Positions 1 to 34,489 of a stretch of 64,000 nucleotides of DNA are shown here, one piece after another. How positions within the stretch are numbered: the stretch's first letter is position 1; each line of letters starts with the position of its first letter. The stretch lies in NCBI GenBank assembly GCA_000004985.1, contig GG738907.1, one strand, 5' to 3'. The position numbers and the translations under genes are program-made. The notes beneath the pieces are model-generated. The model ran no database searches. It was given only the letters and a program-made list of their open reading frames with translations, and was not told the DNA's origin. The stretch comes from Naegleria gruberi. Its lineage: Eukaryota.

Positions 1-2603
1 TTTTGTACTTGTTCTTCATATTCAATTAGAGATTCAGATTCTTTCTGATAAATTTGTTCTAATTTTTCTGATTGTTTTGAATATTCATCTTTATAATTTT
101 TATAATATTGTAATTTAACTTCTAATTCTAATTCACATGTAATTAAACGATCAGATATTTCTTTTAATTTTTCAGAATTAACATGTTTTTGTAATAAATT
201 TTTAGATAATATCATATCATTAGATTTAATTAATTTAACATGTTCAATTCTCTTATTTTCAATTTTTAATTTTGATTTACCAAATAATTTTTCATTTTTT
301 AATTCTAATTGTTCAATATTTAATGTTGTTTCTGCTTCCATTTCATCTCTTTGTAATTGTGAATTAAAACTAAATGTTAATTTAACTTGTTGTGTTTTAA
401 TAAATGTATTCATTATAAATGTATATTTACCAATACTATTAGATGTAATTGAACTTAATTTTAATAATTGATTAGAAGGTGAACTTGATTCAACATTTGA
501 ATCATTTTTATCTTTAATTTGACTAAATGCTAAATATATAGCAAATGATTCTCTAGCAATTCTATTACGTTCTTCTTCTTCTATAGAAGAATTAGATGAA
601 TCTAATTGAGAGGATGATGAATCATTTAATGATGATGATGATGAATTATTATTATTACCAAATATATTACTACTACTACTATTATTGGATGAATTATTTG
701 AATTATTTGAATTAGATAGATGAATTATTAATAGATGGTACAATTAATAACATGTCATTAAATAAATAAATATTATAAAAACCAAATAATCTCTTCTTTT
801 CAATTTCTCTTGAAGATTCAACATGAATAGAATTGAAACAAGTTGTAAATTTTCTATGTGCTTGAAGTAAATTATTAAATCTTCCTTTCATTTTCTCTTG
901 TAAATCAAAAACAATTTTATCATTTTCAGCAATTCTTTTAGATTCATTTAAATTTTCAGCAACTTGATTAACAATTAATAAAGCTTGTTCTAATAATTGA
1001 TAATCTATATGTGTTTCATCTGTTCTTCTTATTACTTCTTGTAATAACATTCTAATACGTGGTACTCTTTGAACTGGACATACTAAATAAGATAAAAAAG
1101 TTAAACCACAACATTCTGACATTTCATGTGTTTTTGTTAGAAATTGTGAAAATGATTTTGATGTTTTTTCTAATTTTTCAACCTTTTCAGCAACACTATC
1201 AAAATTATTAATATATTTAGAATACATTCTAAAAAAAGGAGCAAATGATTTAAATATATTACCAATTAAAATTGGATTTGTTGGCCATTTATCAATTTCT
1301 TTTTTTAAATCATTCATTAATAATTGACTTGCTTGCATTATATTAGGTAATTCACCAAATATATCATTTATATCTGAAAGTGATAAAGTTGGTTTCTTTT
1401 TAGTTTGTGCTTCATTTAGTAATGGATCCATAAATAATTGTTTACATGTTAATAATGAATTAAAATAAGTTTGTTCTGTTGTTAATATTTCTAATAAGGC
1501 TGCTTTTCTTAATCTTGCTTGTCTTACTTGTGGTGATTTACTTATATATTCTTTAAATTGCTTTTTATAGTAATATTTTAATAATTTTAATGATATTAAT
1601 TCTTTAATTTCATTATTTATATTTATATTATTATTATTATTAGAAATATTATTATTTATAATATTATTATTTGTAATATTATTATTTATAGATGAATTAA
1701 TTGATAATTTAGGTGATATTATAGTAGTACTTGTATTATTAAAAGAAGGAGGAGGTAAATCAAGTGAAGGTAAATCCATAGAAGGAAGTGCAGTTAATGA
1801 ATTTAAACGATTAGATGATGATGAGGATGATGTTGTTGTTGCTTTTATAAATGAATTAGTACGATCATGTAAAATAATATCATCCTCATCTGAATCTATA
1901 TCTTCATCATCTTCATATTGACTTGTATCTCCACCATTATAATTATAACTATTACTATCATCAAATGTTGTNNNNNNNNNNNNNNNNNNNNNNNNNNNNN
2001 NNNNNNNNNNNNNNNNNNNNNNNNNNNNNNNNNNNNNNNNNNNNNNNNNNNNNNNNNNNNNNNNNNNNNNNNNNNNNNNNNNNNNNNNNNNNNNNNNGTT
2101 CGGAATTTAGAAAATAAAGTAGTAACAGATCGAGTCTTCTTTTTATGAAGTGAAGAAGAAGATGAAGGTGAAATTAATTGTTGTACATCATTGGGTAAAT
2201 CTGAATATTCTACTTTTTTAAAATAGGTAGATGGTATTTCAAATAATTGATTATTTGATATCTCATTCACTTGATATCCATTATTATTATTATTATTGAT
2301 ATTGATATTGATATTTCTATATATAATGATGATGATGATTATTATGGAGATGACAATAATAATAATATTATTATTTAATAATGATGATGATGGTAATAAC
2401 ATTCATTACATTCATGAAAGATAATAATAATTATTATAATTTAAAGATAACACAAATTCATCTATTAAATAATAAATATAAATTTTAATAACATACTTGA
2501 TTAAATGTATAAAAGTACCCTTTGTTTTATAAATATTATTCTTATTATCAATAAAATCACTTGTTAATTGACCAAATTGATCATTTTCATCAAGTGATGA
2601 CAT
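1..2603 (-). CDS. RhoGEF (Dbl-homology) protein with C-terminal PH-like/coiled-coil region; 3' end runs off the window start and the 5' part is interrupted by an N-gap
   Basis: ORF 712..1779 (-) has a DH-domain signature (QARLRKAALLEILTTEQTYFNSLL...). The minus-strand frame across 1..711 is open to the window edge in a +1 frame relative to the upstream ORF and encodes a PH-like region (KYTFIMNTFIKTQQVKLTFSF...) followed by a coiled coil. This implies a small intron near 712..790, for which the only candidate donor I found is GTTATT. The ATG at 2603 is followed by a low-complexity Asn/Ile-rich region and a 126-nt N-run. 5' exon structure is unresolved. Confidence 0.65.
1972..2097. other. assembly gap (126 N)
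   Basis: Run of N in the sequence. Confidence 1.
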
Positions 2604-3250
2604 TTGTCAGTTGTTTTTTTATTAAATGTCAAAATGATATCAATGGTCATGTCTTCCTTCTCTCGATTTCATGGTCGCTTCGAATGACTTGAAAATTGAT
2701 CGAACGTCACTCTTTCATTTTAGAAAGTTTATTACTATTTTATATGGTCATTGATTTGGTCAACTATATTCTTAATTATCCCAATTAGAATCATGATTGT
2801 ACACTTTATAATTGAATATTTATCATTTAATATTATAATTAATTGAATATAATATTGAGAAAACATTTAATATTTATATATTTCAAAATTAAATTCAAAG
2901 TCATTTCAATTAAAGAAATTTGAGAATCTAATAAATACGATATCTCTCTCCATACATACAATTCGAGATACATTCCATTTATATATTTCAAAAGATCAAC
3001 AATAACAACACATAAAACAATAACAATACAACTAATTATAACTGAAAATAAGAAATTTAAACTACTACTATTATCACTTGAATACCAATTTAAAAAATCA
3101 AAGAAAAATACACTCAGTAATGAATTAATTACTACAACAACAATATCATCATCATCATTAAATAATTCATCATCATCAACTACTACTTTATCATCTAATA
3201 AATCACAATCAATTAATATAAATAATAGTGATAATAATAATGATAATAAT

Positions 3251-5065
3251 ATGATGATAATGGATTGGATAAATAAGAATGAAAATATTAATGATATTTA
3301 TTCACCCATTTCATCTCCTCTTTCTCCTCCTAAAATATTATTTTTATTAAATAATCAAAATAATCAAAATAATCAATTTAATAATAAATCATCTACATCA
3401 ACTTGTATTAATTTATTTAATAATATAAATAATAGTGATAATAATAATAATAATAATAATTCAAATAATAATAATATAATTGAATATTATAAAAAAATAA
3501 TTGATAAAATTGATCAATTTGATTTTGGAATATTAAATACTATATTATCATATTATTTATTAATAATTGATGATTGGTTTATTTGTAATTATTTATTTAA
3601 TAATAATAATAATTATATTAATTTATTTTATGGAAAGAAATTTAATTTTATTTTTCAATTATTTCCTTCTATTTATATTAATATTGAAAATAAATATTTT
3701 ATTAATTATTTAATTGATTTAAAACCAATTATAAATAATTGTGAATTTATTATTTTTAATAATTTAGATCAATTAAATAATTTTAATTTTAAAAAATTAA
3801 AAAGTTTTTCATATTTAAATAATTATAATATTAATAATTTAAATATTCAACATGTATTTGGTAATTCATTAAATACTTTACAAAATTTAACATTTACTTG
3901 TAATTTTAATAATATTAAAAAATTAAAATTAAATTGTAAAATGTTAGAAGATTTAGATTTTAATTCAATTAAAAATATAGAAATATTAACAATACATTTA
4001 AAATATCCAGTTATAGAAGAAAATAATTTAAATTTAATAAATTATTTAAAAAATCAAAAATGTAAAGAATTAAATTTAAATTTTAACATGACAAAATATT
4101 TAAAATATTTTAATGAATTTAATTTAATTCAAACATTATCAATACCATATTGTTTATTTAATGAAAAATTTAATTGGAAAATATTTAAATATTTAAATAA
4201 TTTAACTGTAAATTTTAATGAAAAAATTCAATTTGAAAATTTAATTTCTCAAATTGGAAATCAATTAAAAAAATTATATTTAATTTTAGATATAGATGAA
4301 TTTACAAATGATTCATTTATTAATTTTAATAAATTTTGTATTAATTTAGAAGAATTACAATTAAGTGAAATTAATTTGCATATTTCAAATGAAATTAAAA
4401 ATTCAAATTCAATTACTATATTTGGATGTGATACAATTATAGCAGATTTAATAATTTTAACAAATATTTTATCAATTAAAAATATTTATAGATTAGATTT
4501 AAAAATTAATTCAATTTATTCATTTTTAGAATTAAATTTAAATAATTTATATTTAGAAATTCAATATTTTTATAATTTAAATTCTAATTATCAATTAAAA
4601 AAATATAATAATATAAATAAAATACAAAAATTAGAATTAATTTATAAATATAATGAAAATATTAATGATTTAACATTTTTAACATTTACAAATATAGAAG
4701 AATTAATAATTAAATATGGAATATTAAATACATCTTTATTTAGTCAATTATTATCATGTAATAATATTAAAAAAATAACATTTTATAAAACTGATTTAAA
4801 TAATATTATTTTTAATAAGTTAATTAAATTTAAATTTATTAATTTTATTCAATGTAATTTAAATTTAAATTTTTTAAAAACATTTAAAGAATATTATGAT
4901 AATATTAAATTAAATAATGATATAATATTAGATGGATATTCATTATATTTAACAAATACATTAAATATAAATATTAAACAAAATAATTTAATTGATTTAT
5001 TTAATGAAATTAATTATAAACATGAATATTTAAATAATAATAATAATAATTGTATATTACAATAA
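3251..5065 (+). CDS. Asn-rich leucine-rich-repeat-like hypothetical protein (604 aa)
   Basis: Single long ORF. The first in-frame ATG is 3251, although the frame is open upstream to 2924. Repeated LxxLxLxxN-type segments (LNLNFNMTKYLKYFNEFNLIQTLSIPY...). Extreme AAT/AAA codon bias and poly-N tracts. Confidence 0.5.
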   Translation: MMIMDWINKNENINDIYSPISSPLSPPKILFLLNNQNNQNNQFNNKSSTSTCINLFNNINNSDNNNNNNNSNNNNIIEYYKKIIDKIDQFDFGILNTILSYYLLIIDDWFICNYLFNNNNNYINLFYGKKFNFIFQLFPSIYINIENKYFINYLIDLKPIINNCEFIIFNNLDQLNNFNFKKLKSFSYLNNYNINNLNIQHVFGNSLNTLQNLTFTCNFNNIKKLKLNCKMLEDLDFNSIKNIEILTIHLKYPVIEENNLNLINYLKNQKCKELNLNFNMTKYLKYFNEFNLIQTLSIPYCLFNEKFNWKIFKYLNNLTVNFNEKIQFENLISQIGNQLKKLYLILDIDEFTNDSFINFNKFCINLEELQLSEINLHISNEIKNSNSITIFGCDTIIADLIILTNILSIKNIYRLDLKINSIYSFLELNLNNLYLEIQYFYNLNSNYQLKKYNNINKIQKLELIYKYNENINDLTFLTFTNIEELIIKYGILNTSLFSQLLSCNNIKKITFYKTDLNNIIFNKLIKFKFINFIQCNLNLNFLKTFKEYYDNIKLNNDIILDGYSLYLTNTLNINIKQNNLIDLFNEINYKHEYLNNNNNNCILQ

Positions 5066-5523
5066 AATTATGTTTTATTGCATTTTTTTTGGAATTATTC
5101 AATTAGAAGTGTTTTACAATAAAAATATTAGATGTGATAATGTTTCGATCGTGTGACCAGACTCTCTCTTCATAATCTTGGATAAGTTGACAATCACTGA
5201 TTTCCCAATTCTTCTTTGATTCTACTGGTAGGCACATTTCTAATCATATATTCACAAAGAAAATGGGATGTAATATTGAACTTGTTGCAATTGAACAAAA
5301 TCCACCTTCTCTTTTCACTTGAGACTCAAATTAAATTTGGAGAAATTGTCGTAAAAGATTTGAATTTCTTACCAAAGAGCCTTTTTTTTGGAAAGGGTGA
5401 TGGTGTTGTGGGTGTCTTGTGTTGCCTTAGCAGTTAAAAAAGTGCAAACTAGCTTTTTTGTTAACTATTTTTATTACAAATATGTGAAAATTGTTTGTTA
5501 GTGAGAGGTGATCAGGATTAAAT

Positions 5524-6057
5524 TTAGAGAGCGAAAACACCCAAAACAACAGCCAAAGCAAACATAGCCAAAGCACTGACTTGATTGATAACACCAGAAT
5601 TGTAACAGTTAGTTGTTGGATAAGTGGAACAATCAGGTTGTTTGGTACCAAGTTTAGCATAATCGGAAGCACATTCAGTATTCAACTTTTCACAGAAGGA
5701 CTTGCAGACATTGATTCCATAGTTTGAAGTACTGATGAATTGTTGATTGCTTGGTGAACATTCAGCACATATTTGTTGCTTGTAATATTGACGACATGAA
5801 GATGAAACACCAAGATTAGAATAAACAGTGTCAGAATTTTTCTTACTTGTAACTTGACCAGCAGAACAACATGAGGAAGTCTTGAGAGAAGTTCCACAGA
5901 AATCATCACAATCAGTACAAGCAGTTGCATTGTATGAAATGTTTCTATTCAAACATGTTTGAGCAGAAACAACAGTGTTGAAGAATGTGACCAAGAGGAG
6001 AGTGCAAGCAATGACACATAAGAATTTGACGGACATTTTGATTTGTTTTTTTTTCAA
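5524..6057 (-). CDS. small secreted Cys-rich protein with a predicted GPI-anchor signal (177 aa)
   Basis: N-terminal signal peptide (MKKKQIKMSVKFLCVIACTLLLVTFFNTVVSA). About 16 Cys in CxxC and CC patterns. C-terminal hydrophobic tail after small residues (NSGVINQVSALAMFALAVVLGVFAL), typical of a GPI attachment signal. Confidence 0.6.
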   Translation of the reverse strand: MKKKQIKMSVKFLCVIACTLLLVTFFNTVVSAQTCLNRNISYNATACTDCDDFCGTSLKTSSCCSAGQVTSKKNSDTVYSNLGVSSSCRQYYKQQICAECSPSNQQFISTSNYGINVCKSFCEKLNTECASDYAKLGTKQPDCSTYPTTNCYNSGVINQVSALAMFALAVVLGVFAL

Positions 6058-6657
6058 TTCCTCAACAAGATGTTTTACCCTTAATAAATTTAAGGCAAAT
6101 CATCCAACCCAACCAGTTGATTATTACAATTTGTTTTGTTGTGGGATTTCTTGTGCGAACATTTCTGCTCCGATTTCTAACAAATTTAATCAAAGCCTTT
6201 ATTATTGTGTGATGTGATGATGGATACAAACAATATTCAACAAGTATACCAAATATCACAATATTCATATCGATTTGACTAAAATTGAACGAGTATTTAC
6301 TCTGTAAATATGATGACATTCTGTTTTCCACTTTTTTAAACTACCACTACGACCACATCCTTTACGACTATTCTTTGAACGTGTCATCAAAGATCTCTTT
6401 TTTTTGTATTATTAATAATTGACATGAAGTATGAAGGCTTCATGTTGAAATGGAATGTTATCAAATAAATATTTATTATTATAATTTTATTGTCTTAATT
6501 GAACACCAATTTTCAGATTTGTTGGTTTACTTGTGAGTGAAGTTTCAATTCCGATCGGATCCTTAATTTCATCATTCAATAATATAAAATTACATTTTTG
6601 TAATAATCTAATAATAACTGATGTAATTTCCATTTGTGCAAATTTATATCCCTTTTT

Positions 6658-8365
6658 TTAATAATTTGAATTTTGATATAAATACATTACAATAATATTT
6701 AAAAATATTAAACTTACAATACATCTTCTATTTCCAGAACTAAATGGAATCCATTGATGATTATTTTGTACAAATTCCTTTTCTTGTTGTGTTTTAAATC
6801 TGTTAGGATTAAATTCTTGTGGATTTTCCCACAATTTTTCATCTCTATTAACATCAATTAAATTAATATTAATTTGAGTTCCTTTTGGAATTTCATATTC
6901 ACCAATGATGGTATTTTTTTTAGCAACTATTTTATCAACTTCAAACACAGGTGGATGAATACGTAAACATTCCATGACAACACTTGTAATATATTCAAAT
7001 TTATCAAAATCATTATATGTAAATTCATTATTTCCTAATAGGGTATCAATTTCATGTTGACATTCTTTTTGAATATTTACATGTTTAGAAAGTTCATACA
7101 TTAACCATTGAAGTGATGTTGAACTTGATAAAAATAATTTAAAAATATATTAAATAAATTAAATATAGTATTAAATATATTATTGTAAAGTATTAATAAA
7201 TATATTAAATTTGTAAATATAAAACATACCTTGTATCATAACCAGCCAATGAAAACACAAGTGCATTACTCTTCAATTCACCTCTAGTTAAAACTGAATC
7301 TTGTAAATTAGCTCTAACAAGTAAACTTAATAAATCTTTTCTTTCATCCCAATCAATTTCATTACTATTAAATGTACTAACACTATTAGAATCATTATTA
7401 GAATTAATATTATTAGAATTATTATTAGATGATTGTTTAATTTCATTAATTCTTTCATCAATCATATTATCAATTGATTGACCAATATAATCCAATGCTT
7501 TACCAACACTTGTTAAATTAAGTAATAATTTATAGAGAAGAGGATATTCATCTTGTTGAACAAATCTTCTTAATACTAATGCTCTTCTCCAAACAATTTC
7601 CATATTTGAAACAAATTCATTTCCCTTATTCATTTCATTGGTATAAAGTTGATTCTTTTTTGAATCAGAATCTAAAAATGTTGGTACTGTTTTCATACCA
7701 AATCCACCTGCTAATAATACTGTCATGGTTAATTCAGAGAAATCTTCAATATTAATTTGAACTAGCTGTTGATTATTACCATTTTTAGAAATATTACTAT
7801 TAATAGAAATAGTATTATTATTTAACAATTTAATCCATCTTTCAATTAACATATCACTTGCTTGATTTGAAATTTGACAAACCAATTCTAAATTTTTAGC
7901 AGAAAAAGCAGGTGAAACAATTCGATGATGTTTCTTCCAAATTTCATGATTTGGAGCTGATAATAAATTTTCACCATAAATTCTAAAAGCCTGATAAACA
8001 TAATTAGGTTTATCAAAAGTATTAGCTTTTGTAATATTAACTTGTTTAATTAAATCTCTATCCAATAACCAAATCATATTTTGATTACACATTGATAATC
8101 TAAAGATTTTACCTTCACCTCCAAATTGGAAAGATAATTCTCTAACTTTATCAGCTGTTGTAAAATTACAATAATTTGCAATGAGTGGAATGTGAAATGG
8201 TGTATAAATTATTTGCCAATAACCTGGTATATGTTTTACTAATTTTACATTTTTATAAACTCTATATAATATATTAAATATATAAAATATTAAAATGACA
8301 AGTATGGCAATTAAAAGTGTATTGATAATACTGTATGGCAGTGTTGTTGTTGTTGTAGCTGACAT
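6658..8365 (-). CDS. cytochrome P450 monooxygenase, 2 exons (7230..8365 and 6658..7123; 106-bp GTATGT..AG intron)
   Basis: Exon 1 has an N-terminal membrane anchor (LIAILVILIFYIF). The I-helix AGYDTSSTSLQW is restored by splicing. Exon 2 has ECLRIHPPV and the heme-binding motif FSSGNRRCIG. Confidence 0.85.
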
Positions 8366-8759
8366 TTTTTTTTAATGGATGATGAACCTGCTTGCTAATG
8401 ATTGATGCACTTCATTGTGATCACAATAATAATGAGAATTGTTTTTCATTTTGTAATGAGATGAGTTGTTTGTGAATTGGTCTCTTCATTAAATTGCACA
8501 AATGGAGAATTTACCACTATTGATTGTATGACTATTTGGGAGTAAAAATCATTTTACAAATATTTCAATTATTTTACTGTAAATTGTAGTCAATACAATG
8601 GAATGAACAAATAAATTTGTTTTATTAAGGTGTTTTGGAAAATCCCTTCAATTTTTTCTCAAGAATCGAATGAGTTTCTATCCGAAAGTGTGTTAATTTT
8701 TAATGTCTACCGATTGGAATCTATCAAACACAACTATTAATATTCTATCATACCATTCA

Positions 8760-11105: not shown

Positions 11106-11976
11106 TTAATTGTTATCTTCATCATCATCCTTGAACTTGAAAAGACCATATTTTAGAACACTTCTAAACCACATTCTGATATATTCGGAAGAATATTTAT
11201 CCTCATCATCCAATTCTTCATTTTCTTTTATCATTCTCTCCTTTTCTGAGTGGGCCAATTTGTTTCTTTCAATAGCCTCTTCTGGTCCTGCTTCGAATTC
11301 TGCTTCACTCATCGATTTATAATCCATATCCTTGACATGACCATGTTTAATCAAATAATTGTAGAGCTGTGGATTAACTTTAGAAATGAGTTCAATTATT
11401 ATGCTTCTGCAAGGTTGTATCATGGCAATTTCTTTGAACAAGTGGTTGTAATTGGCACTTTCAATATCTGCAATCATTGAGAATACCACAAACGAAGAGT
11501 CATCTTCGAATGTTGCCTTGTCTAATGTTAATATCACATTTTCATCATTCTTATGAATAAATGTTGTTCTTTGTACTTCGATTGCATACTTCTCTTCTTT
11601 TAAAAAAGTAATTAAGCAAGGAATATTGTTAAGAGCATCAAAGTCCATAACTTTTTCCTGATATTCAATCACTCCACTGTCCATTTGCTTTGTTCTCTTA
11701 ATATAAATAAGGCATCTTTCTATGACCATGTTGAAAAATCTTAAACAAAATATTATTTTGCATGAGAGTACCTTCTTTGGAATCATAGAAATATTCAGTG
11801 TGGTATGTAATTTCCTTTTGATCGAACATTTCTTTCCATGAGCTCTGGCTGAACTCTTCTAATGGCATGATAAAATTTAATGTGGCTTGAGACGCAGAGC
11901 TAGAAACAGTTTCGCGCAAGCAACCAAGTAAGCTAGCAGGTAATCCTGATTGTATCATTTTTTTGGTTTCGTACAA
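11106..11976 (-). CDS. hypothetical acidic-tailed protein, 2 exons (11772..11976 and 11106..11720; 51-bp GTACTC..TAG intron)
   Basis: Two overlapping minus-strand ORFs join in frame through a GT..AG intron (..FYDSKE|ERCLIYIKRTKQMD..). C-terminal Asp/Glu-rich tail. No family recognised. Confidence 0.5.
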
Positions 11977-12174
11977 TCAAAAGGGGTTTTCTCTTATCAG
12001 CCCGTTCGGAAGCATCCAATTGGATTAGGCCTTAGTAATAATACCAAAGATCAAATGTTGTGTTTGTGGATGGATCAATGACAAATTCAGTATCAATAAT
12101 TTATTAATAAGTATAAATGTTTGTGTAACTAATAAATGTATATATTTGTGTGTATTTATTAAATAAAAGAATAA

Positions 12175-13020
12175 TTATATCATTTGAATTGGTTTAGGAG
12201 GACCTCTACATCTAATTTCTCTCAAAACTTGTGCAGAACTACAACATGAACAAAATGTTCCAACACAACAATCAGTACAAGCATTTCCCTATTATTATTT
12301 TACATATTCACACATTCCATATATTTATATAAAATTATCAATATATTCCAATAATTATATCAATTCACAAATATATCCATTCACAAATACATATATCAAA
12401 TCAATTAAAATTTGAAAACCTACTTGTTGAATTCCATATAATTTTCTTGTAATATTTCTAACAATGGTTGACATTATGGTTGGAAAACAACAACTGATAC
12501 AACAAGTACACCACCAAGATGATTGATTATTTTTCACATATTTCAAAGCATCAGCATTAGCACATGGTAAACAACAACAAGTGTAACATGTTTCATTAAA
12601 ATCTCTAGCAGGATATATTTTACAATTCAATTCTTTCTGAGATTGTAATTTAGGTGTAAAAAATTTATCAGTTTCTGTAAAATTATCCGAATCTGAATCT
12701 TGTGAATCATCGTAATCAACATTTTGATGTTGTGATTCTTCATCATCTTCATCATCATATTCAACATTATTTTGAATGACAAAATATTTAGTTTCTGATT
12801 TGGAATTTGTTTTCACACTTAATTCTCCGGAGGAAAATAATCCTGAAGACCATTCCTTCTTTTTGTATTTTAATTTATTTGGTGAAAGAATTGGTTCCAC
12901 TACTTGTTGTTGTTTACTTTTAAATGATGATGATGATGATAGTGTGGAATTATCTTCGTCATCGTGGTAAATGACTGCTGACATTTTTTTTTGAGATATT
13001 TGAAATGTGATTATAATCAT
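12175..13020 (-). CDS. PLAC8 (Cys-rich, cornifelin/FW2.2-like) domain protein with acidic Ser-rich N-terminus, 2 exons (12424..13020 and 12175..12288)
   Basis: Exon 1 ends ..CYTCCCLPCANADALKYVKNNQSSWWCTCCISCCFPTIMSTIVRNITRKLYGIQQ, followed by GTAGGT. Exon 2 after AATAATAG encodes GNACTDCCVGTFCSCCSSAQVLREIRCRGPPKPIQMI, the PLAC8 C-terminal signature. Confidence 0.75.
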
Positions 13021-17161: not shown

Positions 17162-18913
17162 ATGGTACTAAGAATAATCAGTAGTTTCCCGCCTTTTCTT
17201 TGTACAAAAAACAAACTTGAAAAAATGAATCACAGTTATCACGACGATGATGAGGATGAAATGATGATTAAATCATCAATGGAAAGAGAGGATACATACG
17301 ATCCAAACGAATACAACTATGGAGGCAATGATAACGAACATAATGAAGATTATGATGAGGCTGCATTAGAGGAAGATGATGATGATCAATACAGTGATGA
17401 GGAAATTCCTTCGGGAGGCCACAATTTTAATTTCTTCATACAAGGAGGTAAAATTCCAATAAGACAAACACCAATTGCACCAACCCTATCTGAAGATAAG
17501 AGTAGTGATAGGAAAATTAAGGAAGATGATGACTTTGAATACAATATGGATGAAAGTGAAGATGATGAAATCTATCCAATCAGCTCAGATGAGGATGATG
17601 ACCCTCCAGCAGCACTTCAACAGCTCAAACCTAGTATTCAAACGGTGATTAGGAGGAAATCTCCAATGAAGAATACTGAAGAAAAAGTTACACATTCTCC
17701 TCAATCGAATAGTAGACCTTCATCTAATTCATCGAATAAGATAAGAGCAACACCAACAAAAACAACAGCACCAGTTTTGCATGATAGTCCTGAACAAAAT
17801 AATGTTGTTCCTAGACCAAAACTTTCTCTTGGAGCTGTCAGTAGATATACAGATGATGACGATGTGAGGTCATTAACATCTAGTAGAACAAACAGTGATA
17901 ATCTTTCGATAGGAGAAGATAAAATGAAAAATCAACTCGATTATTTGAAACAAAAACAAGAACAACTGTACAAACTCAACCAACAGCTCAATGTGGAAAC
18001 AAAACAAGTTCTCAAAGAAACAGATGATATTGTAAAACAACAATCTAAAAAGGTGGAAAGTATCTCATCAAGAATTCCTTCTAGGCCGACAAGTAGTGCA
18101 TCAACAGTGAGGTCCAATACACCATCGAGTACTCATAGATCCAATGTCTCAACTGCAACAACTACAAGACCTTCTAGTGCACAACCTTCAGCAAAAAAGA
18201 AAGTAATGGAAAAAATTGAAGAAGCCAATCAATATGAAGATGATGACCTGGATAAGGCAGCAAACGAAATGAGTGTCGAAGCAGCCATGAAATTCTATAA
18301 GGCAAGAGTAAAATCACTCCAAAAAGATATTCAAGATTATTCCAATCAAATGAAACTCAAAGATGATAAAATCAAGGAACTGGATATTAAATATAATGCT
18401 GCCATGATAGAAAACAAAAAGGTTACAAAAGCTCAAACCCAATTCCATTCTAGATTGGATAGACAGAGAAAGGAGTTTGATGCTCTTCAACTAAAGTTCA
18501 AAAAACAAACAACACTCATGAATGAGATGCAAAAAGAAAATGAAAAGCTGAAACAAAATCTGAGGATGGATGGACCTGTATCAAACAAGGAAGTTGAACC
18601 AACCTCTGGAAACAATAACGACAGAATCAAAGATCTTAAATATACAAGAGCTTTGGAAGAAGTTGAAAAGCTAAAGAGTCAATTGTCAGAAGCTCAAAAA
18701 CAACAGAGAGAAGATAATGATAAACAAAGGAAGGATACCGAAAATTTGAGAAAGGACAATAAGCGATTAGAAAGACAGAAACAAGATATTGTTTTGGCCT
18801 TCAAAAAACAAATGAAATTAATAGATGTTCTAAAGAGGCAGATAATTCATTTAGAAGCATCAAAGCAACTATCGTTTACAGAAGAAGAATTTACATCACT
18901 TATGAATCAATAA
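17162..18913 (+). CDS. acidic / Ser-Thr-rich coiled-coil protein (583 aa)
   Basis: Long ORF. N-terminal DE-rich and Ser/Thr-rich low complexity. C-terminal 250 aa strongly heptad-like (KLKDDKIKELDIKYNAAMIENKK...LKQNL...). The real start may be the internal Met of MNHSYHDDD. Confidence 0.6.
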   Translation: MVLRIISSFPPFLCTKNKLEKMNHSYHDDDEDEMMIKSSMEREDTYDPNEYNYGGNDNEHNEDYDEAALEEDDDDQYSDEEIPSGGHNFNFFIQGGKIPIRQTPIAPTLSEDKSSDRKIKEDDDFEYNMDESEDDEIYPISSDEDDDPPAALQQLKPSIQTVIRRKSPMKNTEEKVTHSPQSNSRPSSNSSNKIRATPTKTTAPVLHDSPEQNNVVPRPKLSLGAVSRYTDDDDVRSLTSSRTNSDNLSIGEDKMKNQLDYLKQKQEQLYKLNQQLNVETKQVLKETDDIVKQQSKKVESISSRIPSRPTSSASTVRSNTPSSTHRSNVSTATTTRPSSAQPSAKKKVMEKIEEANQYEDDDLDKAANEMSVEAAMKFYKARVKSLQKDIQDYSNQMKLKDDKIKELDIKYNAAMIENKKVTKAQTQFHSRLDRQRKEFDALQLKFKKQTTLMNEMQKENEKLKQNLRMDGPVSNKEVEPTSGNNNDRIKDLKYTRALEEVEKLKSQLSEAQKQQREDNDKQRKDTENLRKDNKRLERQKQDIVLAFKKQMKLIDVLKRQIIHLEASKQLSFTEEEFTSLMNQ

Positions 18914-18914
18914 A

Positions 18915-19811
18915 TTATATGTATTCATCATCTAATAAGACTCGAGCATTATTTTGAGTATGTAAATAGTCAACTGTACTATTGACCAATTCGTAAACTT
19001 TCTTATTTTCACAAACATTGACATGTTTTATGAAAATTTTGTAAAAATCGTCCTTAAATAAAATGTTTGTTGTTGAATCCTCATTAAATGCAATAGTATT
19101 AAATTCTGTGAGTGCTGTATATTTATACCTTTCAATGATTTTTGTCATTTCCTTTTCATCAGAAACCTGTACACTGTCATTACATGTTACTACACTGTTA
19201 ATACACAAAAATATTGGAATATCTTTGAAAAGTTCCTTATATTCATTTAGAATATCCTTGAGTAATAAAATAGATTTTTTAAAGTCGTGATATATGGATA
19301 TTTGTAATTTTGTTATTCCATTGGAAAGGGTTATTTCATCGTTAAAACTCAACACTGATTCATATTCTTTTTTTTCCTCTTTTTCCTCCACTATCTCTTT
19401 AAGAATGTCTATTTCAATTAAATACTTGGCAACAAAGAATATACCATGTGTTGATTTGTAATAATCACTCCACATTGACTTTAAATTTCCACCAATATCC
19501 CATATCTTTAAAAAACAGTAATTTGCATAATTAAAATTAAATGTATTCTGTCCAATAGTTGGATTATAGAATTTCCGACTTGATTTAGAGTATAAATTAT
19601 TAAAATTAAATTGAAATATAGTTGATAGAGGCGATTTAGAGTCAAGTGTCATTATTTTAGAAGGTGAGTGAGAAAATATTTCCTGTTTGTTCATGTTTTT
19701 AATTGTTTGTAATAATTCTGTTTTCCCACTATTCTCCATCCCGATCAATAACAAATTGTAGGTTGGTGTAAAGCTGAGTTTTTCATAAACCAACTCGAAT
19801 AGTGATAACAT
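18915..19811 (-). CDS. divergent ARF-like (ARL-family) small GTPase-like protein with degenerate G3/G4 motifs (298 aa)
   Basis: G1 LLLIGMENSGKTELLQ. The switch region PTIGQNTFNF..CFLKIWDIGGNLKSMWSDYY aligns to ARL [28 protein letters not shown], but Gln is replaced by Asn. NKxD is replaced by CINSVV. A roughly 45-aa insertion follows G1. No Gly2. Confidence 0.6.
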   Translation of the reverse strand: MLSLFELVYEKLSFTPTYNLLLIGMENSGKTELLQTIKNMNKQEIFSHSPSKIMTLDSKSPLSTIFQFNFNNLYSKSSRKFYNPTIGQNTFNFNYANYCFLKIWDIGGNLKSMWSDYYKSTHGIFFVAKYLIEIDILKEIVEEKEEKKEYESVLSFNDEITLSNGITKLQISIYHDFKKSILLLKDILNEYKELFKDIPIFLCINSVVTCNDSVQVSDEKEMTKIIERYKYTALTEFNTIAFNEDSTTNILFKDDFYKIFIKHVNVCENKKVYELVNSTVDYLHTQNNARVLLDDEYI

Positions 19812-19955: not shown

Positions 19956-20567
19956 TTATTCTTTTGGTTCTGGAATTTTGAAAGGACTTGTTCCATTATT
20001 AATTTGTAAAAGTACAACTCTAGGATCTTCTCCATTCACTTTACATCCTATACTAACACAAGTTCCTAATACTTCCTTTACTTTTGCTGTTAATGTTCTT
20101 GCTGTTTTACTAGATTTCTTAGTTTGTGCTATATGAATTAATTGATCAAAAGTCAAATTTCCATCATGAACAACATGATATTGTTTGTCACTTGGAGCCT
20201 CTCCTAAATTTGATATAACAAATAGAGGCGAATGTTCTGCCAATTCCAAATCAATCATATCCCTAGATTTTACAATAAATCTAACAGTAATATGTTTAGC
20301 AGACCAATTCAAAGCCTGAACCAATTCAGTAATTCTCTGAGAGATTACTTTAGGCGAAATTCCGAGTGGACCAAACACTGGTGCAAGTTTACCAGGATTT
20401 GGTTGTTGAGATCTCACTTTCACTACTAAAATAAGTGGATTATCTATTGAGTAATTTTTAGAAGTGGGCACGAGTTTTGTAGTAGTGCCAAAGCCTAAGG
20501 ATGGCGAGTAGGTTAGTGTTGACATTTTTTTTGGATTTATTGTTAAGAATGAACTTTGAATCTCCAC
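19956..20567 (-). CDS. divergent ribosomal protein uL11-family (L12e/L11) paralogue with N-terminal extension (203 aa)
   Basis: PNPGKLAPVFGPLGISPK.. resembles LAPKIGPLGLSPK. ..VKEVLGTCVSIGCKVNGEDP resembles IKEILGTAQSVGCNVDG of eukaryotic L12. IAQTK is as in bacterial L11. Overall identity to cytosolic L12 is only about 35 %, although Rad51 and others in this window are highly conserved. Confidence 0.65.
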   Translation of the reverse strand: MEIQSSFLTINPKKMSTLTYSPSLGFGTTTKLVPTSKNYSIDNPLILVVKVRSQQPNPGKLAPVFGPLGISPKVISQRITELVQALNWSAKHITVRFIVKSRDMIDLELAEHSPLFVISNLGEAPSDKQYHVVHDGNLTFDQLIHIAQTKKSSKTARTLTAKVKEVLGTCVSIGCKVNGEDPRVVLLQINNGTSPFKIPEPKE

Positions 20568-32971: not shown

Positions 32972-34489
32972 TTAATTAAACTTGGCAAGAATATTCTTCT
33001 TCAATAATTGGTATTCATCCTTATCAATGAGTCCCTTCTCAAAAAGAGCACCAACTCTCTCAAGCTCACCAATGGCACCACCACCACCACCATTTGAAGA
33101 TGTTGATGGAACTGAAACCTTATTAGCAGATTGAATTCTACTAGATTCCACACTCTTAAATTGATTATCAGGAACTTGATTTACAGAATTGTAACCCATT
33201 CTACTTGCAATTGAATTTCCAGTATTTGTTGCTCTTTCAATGGCTTCATCAGCTTCATCTTCCTGACTGTAGGTTCTTGATGGCTTATTTGGAGGTGGAG
33301 GAGTATTCATACTTGGTTTAGTTGGAATAGAAGGAGGAGGTGTTGATTTTCCAACACTGCTTCCACCATAAGGTGATGAGCTAGTAGTAGTTGTTGAATT
33401 TCCAAATGTTCTTGGACTTGGTTTAGTTGGAACGTTTGGTTGTGAAGATGGTGAAACCATTGGAACATCCAATCCAGGTGGTGGTTGCACAAGTGGTTTT
33501 GCTGTAATTGCAGGTCTAGAACCAACTTGTGGAGGAGGAGTATAACTTGATCCAAATGATGGTTGACTTCTAACAGGTGGTGGTGAATTATCAACAGATG
33601 GAGGAGATGTACTCTGTGGTTTTCCTGGAATTGGTGGAGGAACACCACGAGATGATGGAATTGGTGGAGCATTTCCTCTACTACTGTTACTATTAAATCC
33701 TGAAGATGTGGATGATGAATATGATGATGTAGATGAAGGAGGAGGTGTATCCATAGATGGTGGTGATGAATTATTATTCATTCCTCTAGATGGAATTGGT
33801 GGAGCATTTCCCTTTGGAGGTGGAACACTTGGTTTACTACCGAAAGATGGAAGTGATGGAGGTGGTTGTGGAGATTCTTCTTGTTGATCTCTTCTGGATG
33901 GAATTGGAGGAGCTGTACTGCCACCACCACCACCGAAACCACCACGAGGTTGTGGAACACTTGGTGGTTGTGGACGAGAGGAAGGTACAACTGGTGGTTG
34001 TGGTTTCGAACCGAAACCTCCACCACTACTGGTGCTGCTACCACCAAAGGATGGTTTTGGAGGAGGTGATTGAGAAGATGGAGAGGATTGTGGAGTACTG
34101 CTGCCTCCGCCTCCTCCTGCTTTCATTTGTCTCTTCTTCATCATTTCGTCCAACATTGGATTACCAGTTGGGACGAAACCACCTCCACCTCCCATACCAC
34201 CACCACCACTACTACCACCACCATATGATGATCCACCACCACCTGAAGTAGGAGGACGTGCTGATCCACCACCACCACCTCCAGAACCACCACCACCACC
34301 TCCTTTTGGAGCATCTAACAAGGCACCATCACGAATTTTCTTTTCACTTTCTGGGACTTTCTTCAATCTGGCTCCCTTGTTAATATCACTTAAAAGATTG
34401 GCTCTACCTGCAGATGGAGCTTTTACTTGAACTGTTGAGGTTGGTGGAGGAGGTGGAGAGACACCAACTGGCGGAGGAGGAACTGGCAT
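32972..34489 (-). CDS. WH2-domain proline/glycine-rich protein (verprolin/WIP-like architecture), 505 aa
   Basis: N-terminal polyPro, then WH2 motif RANLLSDINKGARLKKV. Long PPxP/GGGG low complexity. C-terminus ..GELERVGALFEKGLIDKDEYQLLKKNILAKFN. Opposite-strand ORFs 33307..34251 are low-complexity artefacts. Confidence 0.65.
   Translation of the reverse strand: MPVPPPPVGVSPPPPPTSTVQVKAPSAGRANLLSDINKGARLKKVPESEKKIRDGALLDAPKGGGGGGSGGGGGGSARPPTSGGGGSSYGGGSSGGGGMGGGGGFVPTGNPMLDEMMKKRQMKAGGGGGSSTPQSSPSSQSPPPKPSFGGSSTSSGGGFGSKPQPPVVPSSRPQPPSVPQPRGGFGGGGGSTAPPIPSRRDQQEESPQPPPSLPSFGSKPSVPPPKGNAPPIPSRGMNNNSSPPSMDTPPPSSTSSYSSSTSSGFNSNSSRGNAPPIPSSRGVPPPIPGKPQSTSPPSVDNSPPPVRSQPSFGSSYTPPPQVGSRPAITAKPLVQPPPGLDVPMVSPSSQPNVPTKPSPRTFGNSTTTTSSSPYGGSSVGKSTPPPSIPTKPSMNTPPPPNKPSRTYSQEDEADEAIERATNTGNSIASRMGYNSVNQVPDNQFKSVESSRIQSANKVSVPSTSSNGGGGGAIGELERVGALFEKGLIDKDEYQLLKKNILAKFN

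Follow-up and report, generated by a model that had tools for sequence, protein, structure and literature searches.

The ribosomal protein uL11 is located in the GTPase-associated centre, at the base of the P-stalk, and is among the most conserved ribosomal proteins, canonical copies of heteroloboseans and animals being about 70% identical. In yeast, Mrt4, a paralogue of uL10 (P0), holds the stalk-base rRNA site during 60S assembly; we know of no such placeholder for uL11. The two yeast copies of uL11 encode the same protein. Paralogue switching, in which alternative copies serve one ribosomal position, has been described for yeast RPL12A/B (PMC7409069) and for bS21 of Francisella (PMC13374519). 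The protein analysed here would resemble these cases as an alternative copy, but the known pairs are generally much closer: it is about 35% identical to canonical uL11 and has lost hallmark motifs of the family. It is encoded by NAEGRDRAFT_73708, a gene of Naegleria gruberi that lies in a stretch of 64,000 nucleotides of contig GG738907.1 (assembly GCA_000004985.1), hereafter referred to as the window.

We give a probability of about 0.6 to the reading that this gene encodes a lineage-restricted, fast-evolved cytosolic uL11 paralogue, which would dock at the GTPase-associated centre and present an altered surface to translation factors and to the stalk. The gene is a previously unannotated, narrowly distributed variant of a very well known family. 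Its open reading frame (ORF) is uninterrupted from 19956 to 20567 (-) if read from an upstream GTG, as in the ORF list, and the actual start codon is the ATG at 20525; the protein encoded from there has 189 amino acids (aa) and begins with MSTLTYSPS (Table 1). The product is 100% identical to N. gruberi XP_002671233.1 / EFC38489.1 (UniProt D2VXD6; P0001), a record labelled only as 'predicted protein', which should now read 'uL11/RPL12-like, cytosolic type, not mitochondrial'. The protein is colinear with canonical uL11, with no segment missing, and is still basic as a whole (isoelectric point, pI, of 9.5). The landmarks LAPVFGPLGISPK, IHIAQTK, and VKEVLGTCVSIGCKVNGEDP, listed in an original prediction that a model had made from the letters of the window, were all found in it. 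Neither NAEGRDRAFT_73708 nor a comparable diverged uL11 paralogue was mentioned in the literature that we searched.

Judged by its matches, the whole protein clearly belongs to the L12e type, that is, archaeo-eukaryotic and cytosolic. The earlier description as a highly divergent, L12e-type member of the uL11 family was borne out by the Pfam model of the L11 C-domain (PF00298, residues 105–163, E = 1.6e-12, 48.1 bits against a cut-off of 21.4) and by phmmer and BLASTP matches. The hidden Markov model (HMM) check that had been proposed for both L11 domains succeeded for this domain only, as the N-domain model (PF03946) scored 15.3 bits against a cut-off of 32.9 (E = 0.018); nevertheless, pairwise alignments and the structure model described below still placed a homologous N-domain at residues 29–96. 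Among PDB chains searched with phmmer, eukaryotic cytosolic uL11/RPL12 gave the best matches (E about 7e-24, residues 45–179), followed by archaeal L11 (1e-16 to 1e-9), bacterial L11 being marginal (0.01–0.1). With BLASTP, the protein was 42% identical over 142 aa to RPL12 of Heterolobosea sp. BB2 (E = 1e-36), and its identity to 40 canonical eukaryotic uL11 proteins was 31–39%, in agreement with the 'about a third' that had been judged by eye.

The protein shares the archaeo-eukaryotic subtype with archaeal L11, as seen from the 71 bits obtained over residues 41–179 with NCBIfam PRK01143; however, an equivalog has to reach 162 bits, of which this falls far short, the host is a eukaryote, and the nearest sequences are eukaryotic. 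The likeness to bacterial and mitochondrial uL11 consists of a distant common fold and of the pentapeptide IAQTK, which also occurs in E. coli L11. The original prediction had seen bacterial-like segments in the protein; the pentapeptide is literally present, but the affinity that it seemed to indicate was not found, as the bacterial model TIGR01632 reached only 20.3 bits against a cut-off of 141.85, over residues 117–164 only.

An AlphaFold2 model shows the protein with the two-domain architecture of uL11, at a mean predicted local distance difference test score (pLDDT) of 75. The score was below 50 at residues 1–18 and 111–119, and was 83–91 in the C-domain core (residues 120–180). In the N-domain, strands were modelled at residues 31–38, 78–85, and 91–95, and helices at 44–54 and 58–72. 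When the model was compared with the PDB by Foldseek, the top matches were all uL11 chains, from human and yeast 80S and pre-60S particles (E = 5e-11), with target-normalised template modelling (TM) scores of 0.59–0.67 (about 0.65), whereas bacterial and mitoribosomal uL11 matched at about 1e-4.

The family to which the protein belongs is small. In N. gruberi there is one further copy, XP_002681996.1 (a partial gene model, the full length of which, P0007, was taken from an ENA contig), 60–65% identical to the first, and one environmental relative, P0003, is 44–49% identical. In a full HMMER scan of 1.84 billion representative proteins, only four were found at E < 1e-30, namely the query, the second copy (P0002), P0003, and a poplar protein, and nothing closer than 40% identity turned up when JGI metagenome contigs were scanned twice. 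The poplar 'RPL12-like' protein (P0009 / P0156, Populus, 272 aa), the third-best representative match, is internally duplicated over most of its length; it is probably an annotation or assembly artefact, the score of which is inflated by two matched stretches. In a full-length neighbour-joining (NJ) tree, the three family members formed a clade with 100% bootstrap support, within which the two N. gruberi copies were sisters (86%); the divergent lineage is thus older than the duplication in N. gruberi. No counterpart of the gene located upstream of the environmental relative was found within the window. All three members retain the length and the two domains of uL11; the helix motif LAPxFGPLGxSP is present in both N. 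gruberi copies and reads SILSPLCISRR in the environmental relative.

The genes of the family are intact and under purifying selection, the ratio of nonsynonymous to synonymous rates (dN/dS) being 0.23 between the N. gruberi copies and 0.24 against the environmental relative, at saturated dS. The GC content at third codon positions (GC3) of the gene (0.18) and its NNC/NNY value (0.12) lie at the low end of the window genes.

To locate the divergence, we started from 42 canonical eukaryotic uL11 sequences, selected the alignment columns with a conservation of at least 90%, and recorded how many of these are kept in the protein, in the second copy, and in the environmental relative (Ng1 / Ng2 / env3). 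The C-domain core (human 101–165) keeps 16 / 16 / 16 of its 19 conserved columns. By contrast, 14 / 13 / 5 of the 32 conserved columns are kept in the N-domain (human 9–72), 3 / 3 / 2 of six in the N-terminal motif, and 5 / 5 / 4 of 19 in the hinge, first C-domain helix, and basic loop (human 73–100). Conservation of the core, the helix VKEVLGTCVSIGC included, nearly equals that seen in canonical uL11. The most conserved stretch, VKEVLGTCVSIGCKVNGEDPR, presumably corresponds to the helix located in the minor groove of the rRNA in crystal structures of bacterial L11–RNA complexes. The gene could also be a decaying, functionless duplicate or a pseudogene, as its very high divergence, low codon bias, and very narrow taxonomic spread might suggest; we consider this highly improbable, since the reading frame is intact in both N. 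gruberi copies and in the environmental relative, dN/dS is about 0.23, and the core is nearly fully kept in each member.

Compared with canonical RPL12 (human, yeast Rpl12, and Acrasis kona), which gives its best sequence and structure matches, the protein has the same two-domain, colinear organisation and a similar pI (about 9.5), and it keeps the C-domain positions HxGN, IA, LGTxxSxGC, P148, I155, and G158 as well as the APxxGPLGxSPK helix. It differs in being 31–42% identical, in its low codon bias, in an extra disordered N-terminus of 22 aa, and in the lack of MPPKFDP, GGE, K31, K41, QNR, and RDRKKxKN. MPPKFDP and GGE are invariant in the 42 canonical sequences, two other heteroloboseans included. 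MPPKFDP, a eukaryote-specific N-terminal motif that contacts the P-complex (PMC9122527), is replaced by MSTLTYSPS...SIDNP. Further losses from the N-domain concern the GGE loop, the columns of which are gaps or Q, K31 (of LAPKIGPLG), K41, and the QNR motif. The QNR motif belongs to the region of the methylated Arg in yeast. The canonical basic loop, PPRDRKKxKNIK, reads APSDKQYHVV in the Naegleria protein. Over human positions 73–99 the net charge is -2, against +4 to +6 in canonical proteins, and over the C-domain core it is shifted from about -3 to +3.

The N-terminal extension had been given as 40 aa long. Its true length is about 22 aa, because residues 28–40 (DNPLILVVKVRSQ) match canonical D6–G19 and are modelled as strand beta1 (31–38). 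Residues 1–28 include 11 Ser/Thr, two Lys, one Asp (residue 28), and no Arg. The first residues read MSTLTYSPS in Ng1, MSLSYSPS in Ng2, and MSTNKHSPS in the environmental relative; the start MS-L-YSPS is thus common to both N. gruberi paralogues and partly present in the third member. From its letters, it looks like a proline-directed phosphorylation motif and may be one. As a separate observation, MS(T)L(T/S)YSPS of the N. gruberi paralogues (20442–20525 (-); L006 216–240) resembles the YSPxSPS heptad of the C-terminal domain of RNA polymerase II.

The original prediction had offered, as one reading, a nuclear-encoded mitochondrial uL11 with the extension as transit peptide. The extension, of about 22 aa, Ser/Thr-rich and with a net charge of +1, is what could be said for this explanation, but Arg is absent from it and its start is conserved from one paralogue to the other, which is unlike a transit peptide. 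In both sequence and fold the protein is of the cytosolic type, and its matches to L11 of bacteria and mitochondria are only marginal. The question whether the mitochondrial DNA (mtDNA) encodes rpl11 was answered positively: the mtDNA-encoded L11 of N. gruberi, NP_066519.1, is listed with mass-spectrometry intensities in the mitochondrial proteome, having been detected in the mitochondrial fraction (Horvathova et al., PMC8134430, Supplementary Data 2), and the mitochondrial slot is thus filled. This L11 has 148 aa, is of bacterial type with the motif PVGPTLGQFGI, and gave no BLASTP alignment with the uL11-like protein even at E <= 100. Furthermore, XP_002671233.1 was not found in the searched part of the N. 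gruberi mitochondrial proteome table. The protein is therefore not the mitochondrial uL11, an identity that is practically ruled out by its cytosolic type, by the existence of an mtDNA-encoded L11, and by the lack of similarity to it.

Among the explanations offered beforehand, that of a specialised paralogue is the best, since a second N. gruberi copy and an environmental relative exist. It has to be weighed against the explanation that the gene and its sister copy are the only, housekeeping uL11 of Naegleria, exceptionally diverged. Lists of homologues obtained with the canonical queries P0004 (amoebozoan-like) and P0217 (heterolobosean) contained no Naegleria protein among the best 120 of 3847 and of 5609 matches, respectively, while Acrasis kona and Andalucia godoyi were among the matches listed. 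Moreover, yeast and bacteria can live without uL11, and constraint on it could therefore relax. A tblastn search of the window with human RPL12 found no uL11 gene besides NAEGRDRAFT_73708, and the literature and supplements searched gave no accession for an N. gruberi RPL12, but only a 'Ribosomal protein L12' gene in Willaertia magna.

However, the lists of best matches extend down to only about 69% identity to the query, so that little can be concluded from the lack of a Naegleria protein in them. Between the two N. gruberi copies, identity is no more than 60–65%, whereas duplicated genes for housekeeping ribosomal proteins are normally near-identical, as are the canonical copies on the environmental loci L087 and L088 (96% nucleotide identity). 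The low codon bias of the gene, the loss of motifs that are invariant in the 42 canonical sequences, and the scarcity of close relatives in the metagenome contigs and among the 1.8 billion proteins also argue against a housekeeping gene. The statement that other conserved genes of the window are not fast-evolving held for Rad51, which is ordinarily conserved (451 bits against human RAD51). We thus regard a sole, housekeeping uL11 as very unlikely; were it true, it would be far more surprising.

The absence of Naegleria from the homologue lists nonetheless counts against a paralogue that docks at the GTPase-associated centre, and so do several further points. Paralogue status itself is something that we infer from indirect arguments. 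The codon-bias comparison was made with the window genes rather than with the ribosomal-protein genes of N. gruberi. No record of expression or ribosome association of the NAEGRDRAFT_73708 product was found in the supplement tables searched for accessions or for L12. As the input alignment of the structure model consisted mostly of canonical uL11, the agreement of the N-domain fold was partly imposed. Finally, the basic loop of bacterial L11 becomes ordered on rRNA binding, according to nuclear magnetic resonance (NMR) and crystal work, and its loss here could mean weaker or different RNA binding.

Concerning the origin of the gene, Acrasis kona and strain BB2 have an ordinary RPL12 (with 79% identity between the two and about 70% to the animal proteins), and the identity of the C-domain is highest to the canonical RPL12 of heteroloboseans (54.5% for BB2 and 50% for P0261). 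The exact 10-mer GCKVNGEDPR is common to the Naegleria protein and to P0365, a canonical-type protein 75% identical to that of BB2. From these similarities, we favour an origin in which a heterolobosean RPL12 would have been duplicated and would then have undergone accelerated change. Alternatively, the protein may descend from an older paralogue family common to Naegleria and to a second group of proteins, described below.

This second group, the 'tail' family (P0006, P0008, P0067, P0090, and P0119), comprises divergent L12e-like proteins from environmental eukaryotic contigs. Its genes sit on genuine nuclear contigs, beside genes for TRAPPC10, BUD31, Rpb5, and LSM14. In its members, too, MPPKFDP and GGE are missing, and the C-domains are LTA-V and CKVNGxDPRxVQ-like, but the members differ from the Naegleria proteins by an insertion of 10–25 aa in a C-domain loop and by an acidic tail, VVEDYLDxELY. 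In the full-length NJ tree, the 'tail' family was sister to the Naegleria family with 77% bootstrap support. However, in profile–profile comparisons each divergent family scored closer to canonical uL11 (202 and 185) than to the other (171), and a tree of the C-domain alone, which had no resolution, does not support a common origin; the grouping may be due to long-branch attraction. In the metagenome 3300037860, a tandem pair of 'tail' genes co-occurs with two Acrasis-like canonical uL11 copies (L087 and L088), the GC3 being 0.46–0.48 in the canonical genes and 0.30 in the 'tail' paralogues, on contigs of one sample that perhaps come from several organisms. This contrast in codon usage would fit a highly expressed canonical gene beside weakly expressed paralogues.

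If NAEGRDRAFT_73708 encodes a cytosolic paralogue, the protein would dock on H43/H44 of the rRNA at the base of the P-stalk, where it would replace canonical uL11. Its surface there would be different, because the parts that face the GTPases and the P-complex are rewritten, namely the N-terminus, the GGE loop, most of the N-domain, and the basic loop, and contacts with eEF2, with eEF1A-tRNA, and with the P-complex would be altered. The Ser/Thr-rich extension, predicted to be disordered, would take the place of MPPKFDP, and phosphorylation may occur at MS-L-YSPS. The most likely role would be that of an alternative uL11 marking a minority of 60S or pre-60S particles, or those of a particular condition (specialised, dormant, or assembling), rather than the bulk ribosome.

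The same changes could also be read as those of a neofunctionalised, extraribosomal RNA-binding protein that has kept the uL11 C-domain as its RNA-binding module. The N-domain, the basic loop, and the N-terminus that binds the P-complex are all rewritten, constraint bears only on the C-domain core, and in the environmental relative even the APxxGPLG helix motif is gone. However, the three members still have both domains and the length of uL11, LAPxFGPLGxSP persists in the N. gruberi pair, and no alternative RNA partner or domain fusion was evident, the neighbouring genes being unrelated. We consider this explanation rather unlikely.

A paralogue docking at the stalk base could be compared with Mrt4. 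The comparison is one of concept and an analogy only: both would be diverged stalk-base paralogues in which the rRNA-binding module is kept and the parts serving stalk and factors are gone, but Mrt4 is derived from uL10 and is conserved across eukaryotes. A broader proposal, which we hold to be quite unlikely, is that heteroloboseans, and perhaps other protists, have an unrecognised class of uL11-like stalk-base proteins, comprising the Naegleria and VVEDYLDxELY-tail families, that would occupy H43/H44 in distinct particles. Such a class could act as a placeholder during 60S assembly or dormancy, in the manner of Mrt4, or could alter the use of translational GTPases according to life stage (cyst, flagellate). 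As for the Naegleria gene itself, a selected copy in which only the rRNA-docking core is retained and the parts facing factors and stalk are rewritten would be a natural experiment in changing the engagement of the ribosome with elongation factors, and could provide the first uL11 counterpart of the Mrt4/uL10 placeholder. We see the gene as a modest but worthwhile lead.

Table 1. Coordinates of the uL11-like gene and its parts, of other ORFs in the window, and of 'tail' family genes on environmental contigs.
Feature	Sequence	Coordinates	Strand	Remarks
Complete intron-less coding sequence, uL11-like protein	window	19956..20525	-	189 codons + stop (19956-19958); NAEGRDRAFT_73708
N-terminal extension, residues 1-28	window	20442..20525	-	replaces MPPKFDP; predicted disordered (pLDDT, family alignment, composition)
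Divergent factor/stalk-facing N-domain, residues 29-96	window	20238..20441	-	APxxGPLGxSPK helix kept; PF03946 below threshold
Hinge, first C-domain helix, and loop, residues 97-119	window	20169..20237	-	pLDDT <50 at 111-119
C-terminal rRNA-binding domain core, residues 120-180	window	19986..20168	-	HDGNLTFDQLIHIAQ ... VKEVLGTCVSIGCKVNGEDPR; PF00298, conservation, pLDDT 83-91
C-terminal tail SPFKIPEPKE (residues 181-189) + stop	window	19956..19985	-	ORF translation
RhoGEF	window	712-1779	-	in AT-rich first ~8.4 kb
Unassigned 604-aa ORF	window	3251-5065	+	in AT-rich first ~8.4 kb
P450-like ORF	window	7205-8365	-	in AT-rich first ~8.4 kb
'Tail' family tandem pair	L001	5001-5570 and 5732-6253		JGI metagenome 3300037860
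'Tail' family gene	L003/L004	8001-8585		

The window is AT-rich, eukaryotic DNA and, as the identity of the product to XP_002671233.1 shows, belongs to the nuclear genome of N. gruberi. The genes that flank NAEGRDRAFT_73708 encode an ELP2-like WD40 protein, an Arf-like GTPase, an EF-hand protein, and a C2-domain protein; as they are unrelated, functional clustering with the neighbours was rejected. The Arf-family GTPase (298 aa, 18915-19811 (-)) lies directly downstream of the uL11-like gene. Only its residues 81–128 match the Arf model and a long extra sequence follows the G-domain core, so that it appears to be an atypical Arf/Arl-like protein. No Pfam match at E <= 0.001 was obtained for ORFs of 583, 226, and 221 aa (17162-18913 (+), 11106-13020 (-)). 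An ORF of 153 aa with a GC3 of 0.72 (33790-34251 (+)) lies antisense inside an ORF of 505 aa (32972-34489 (-)) and is probably a shadow of the gene on the opposite strand rather than a gene. Finally, a sharp compositional boundary was observed within this single scaffold: positions 1–8400 of the window have a GC content of 19–23%, against 30–37% elsewhere, and the long ORFs of this part have a GC3 of 0.02–0.11.

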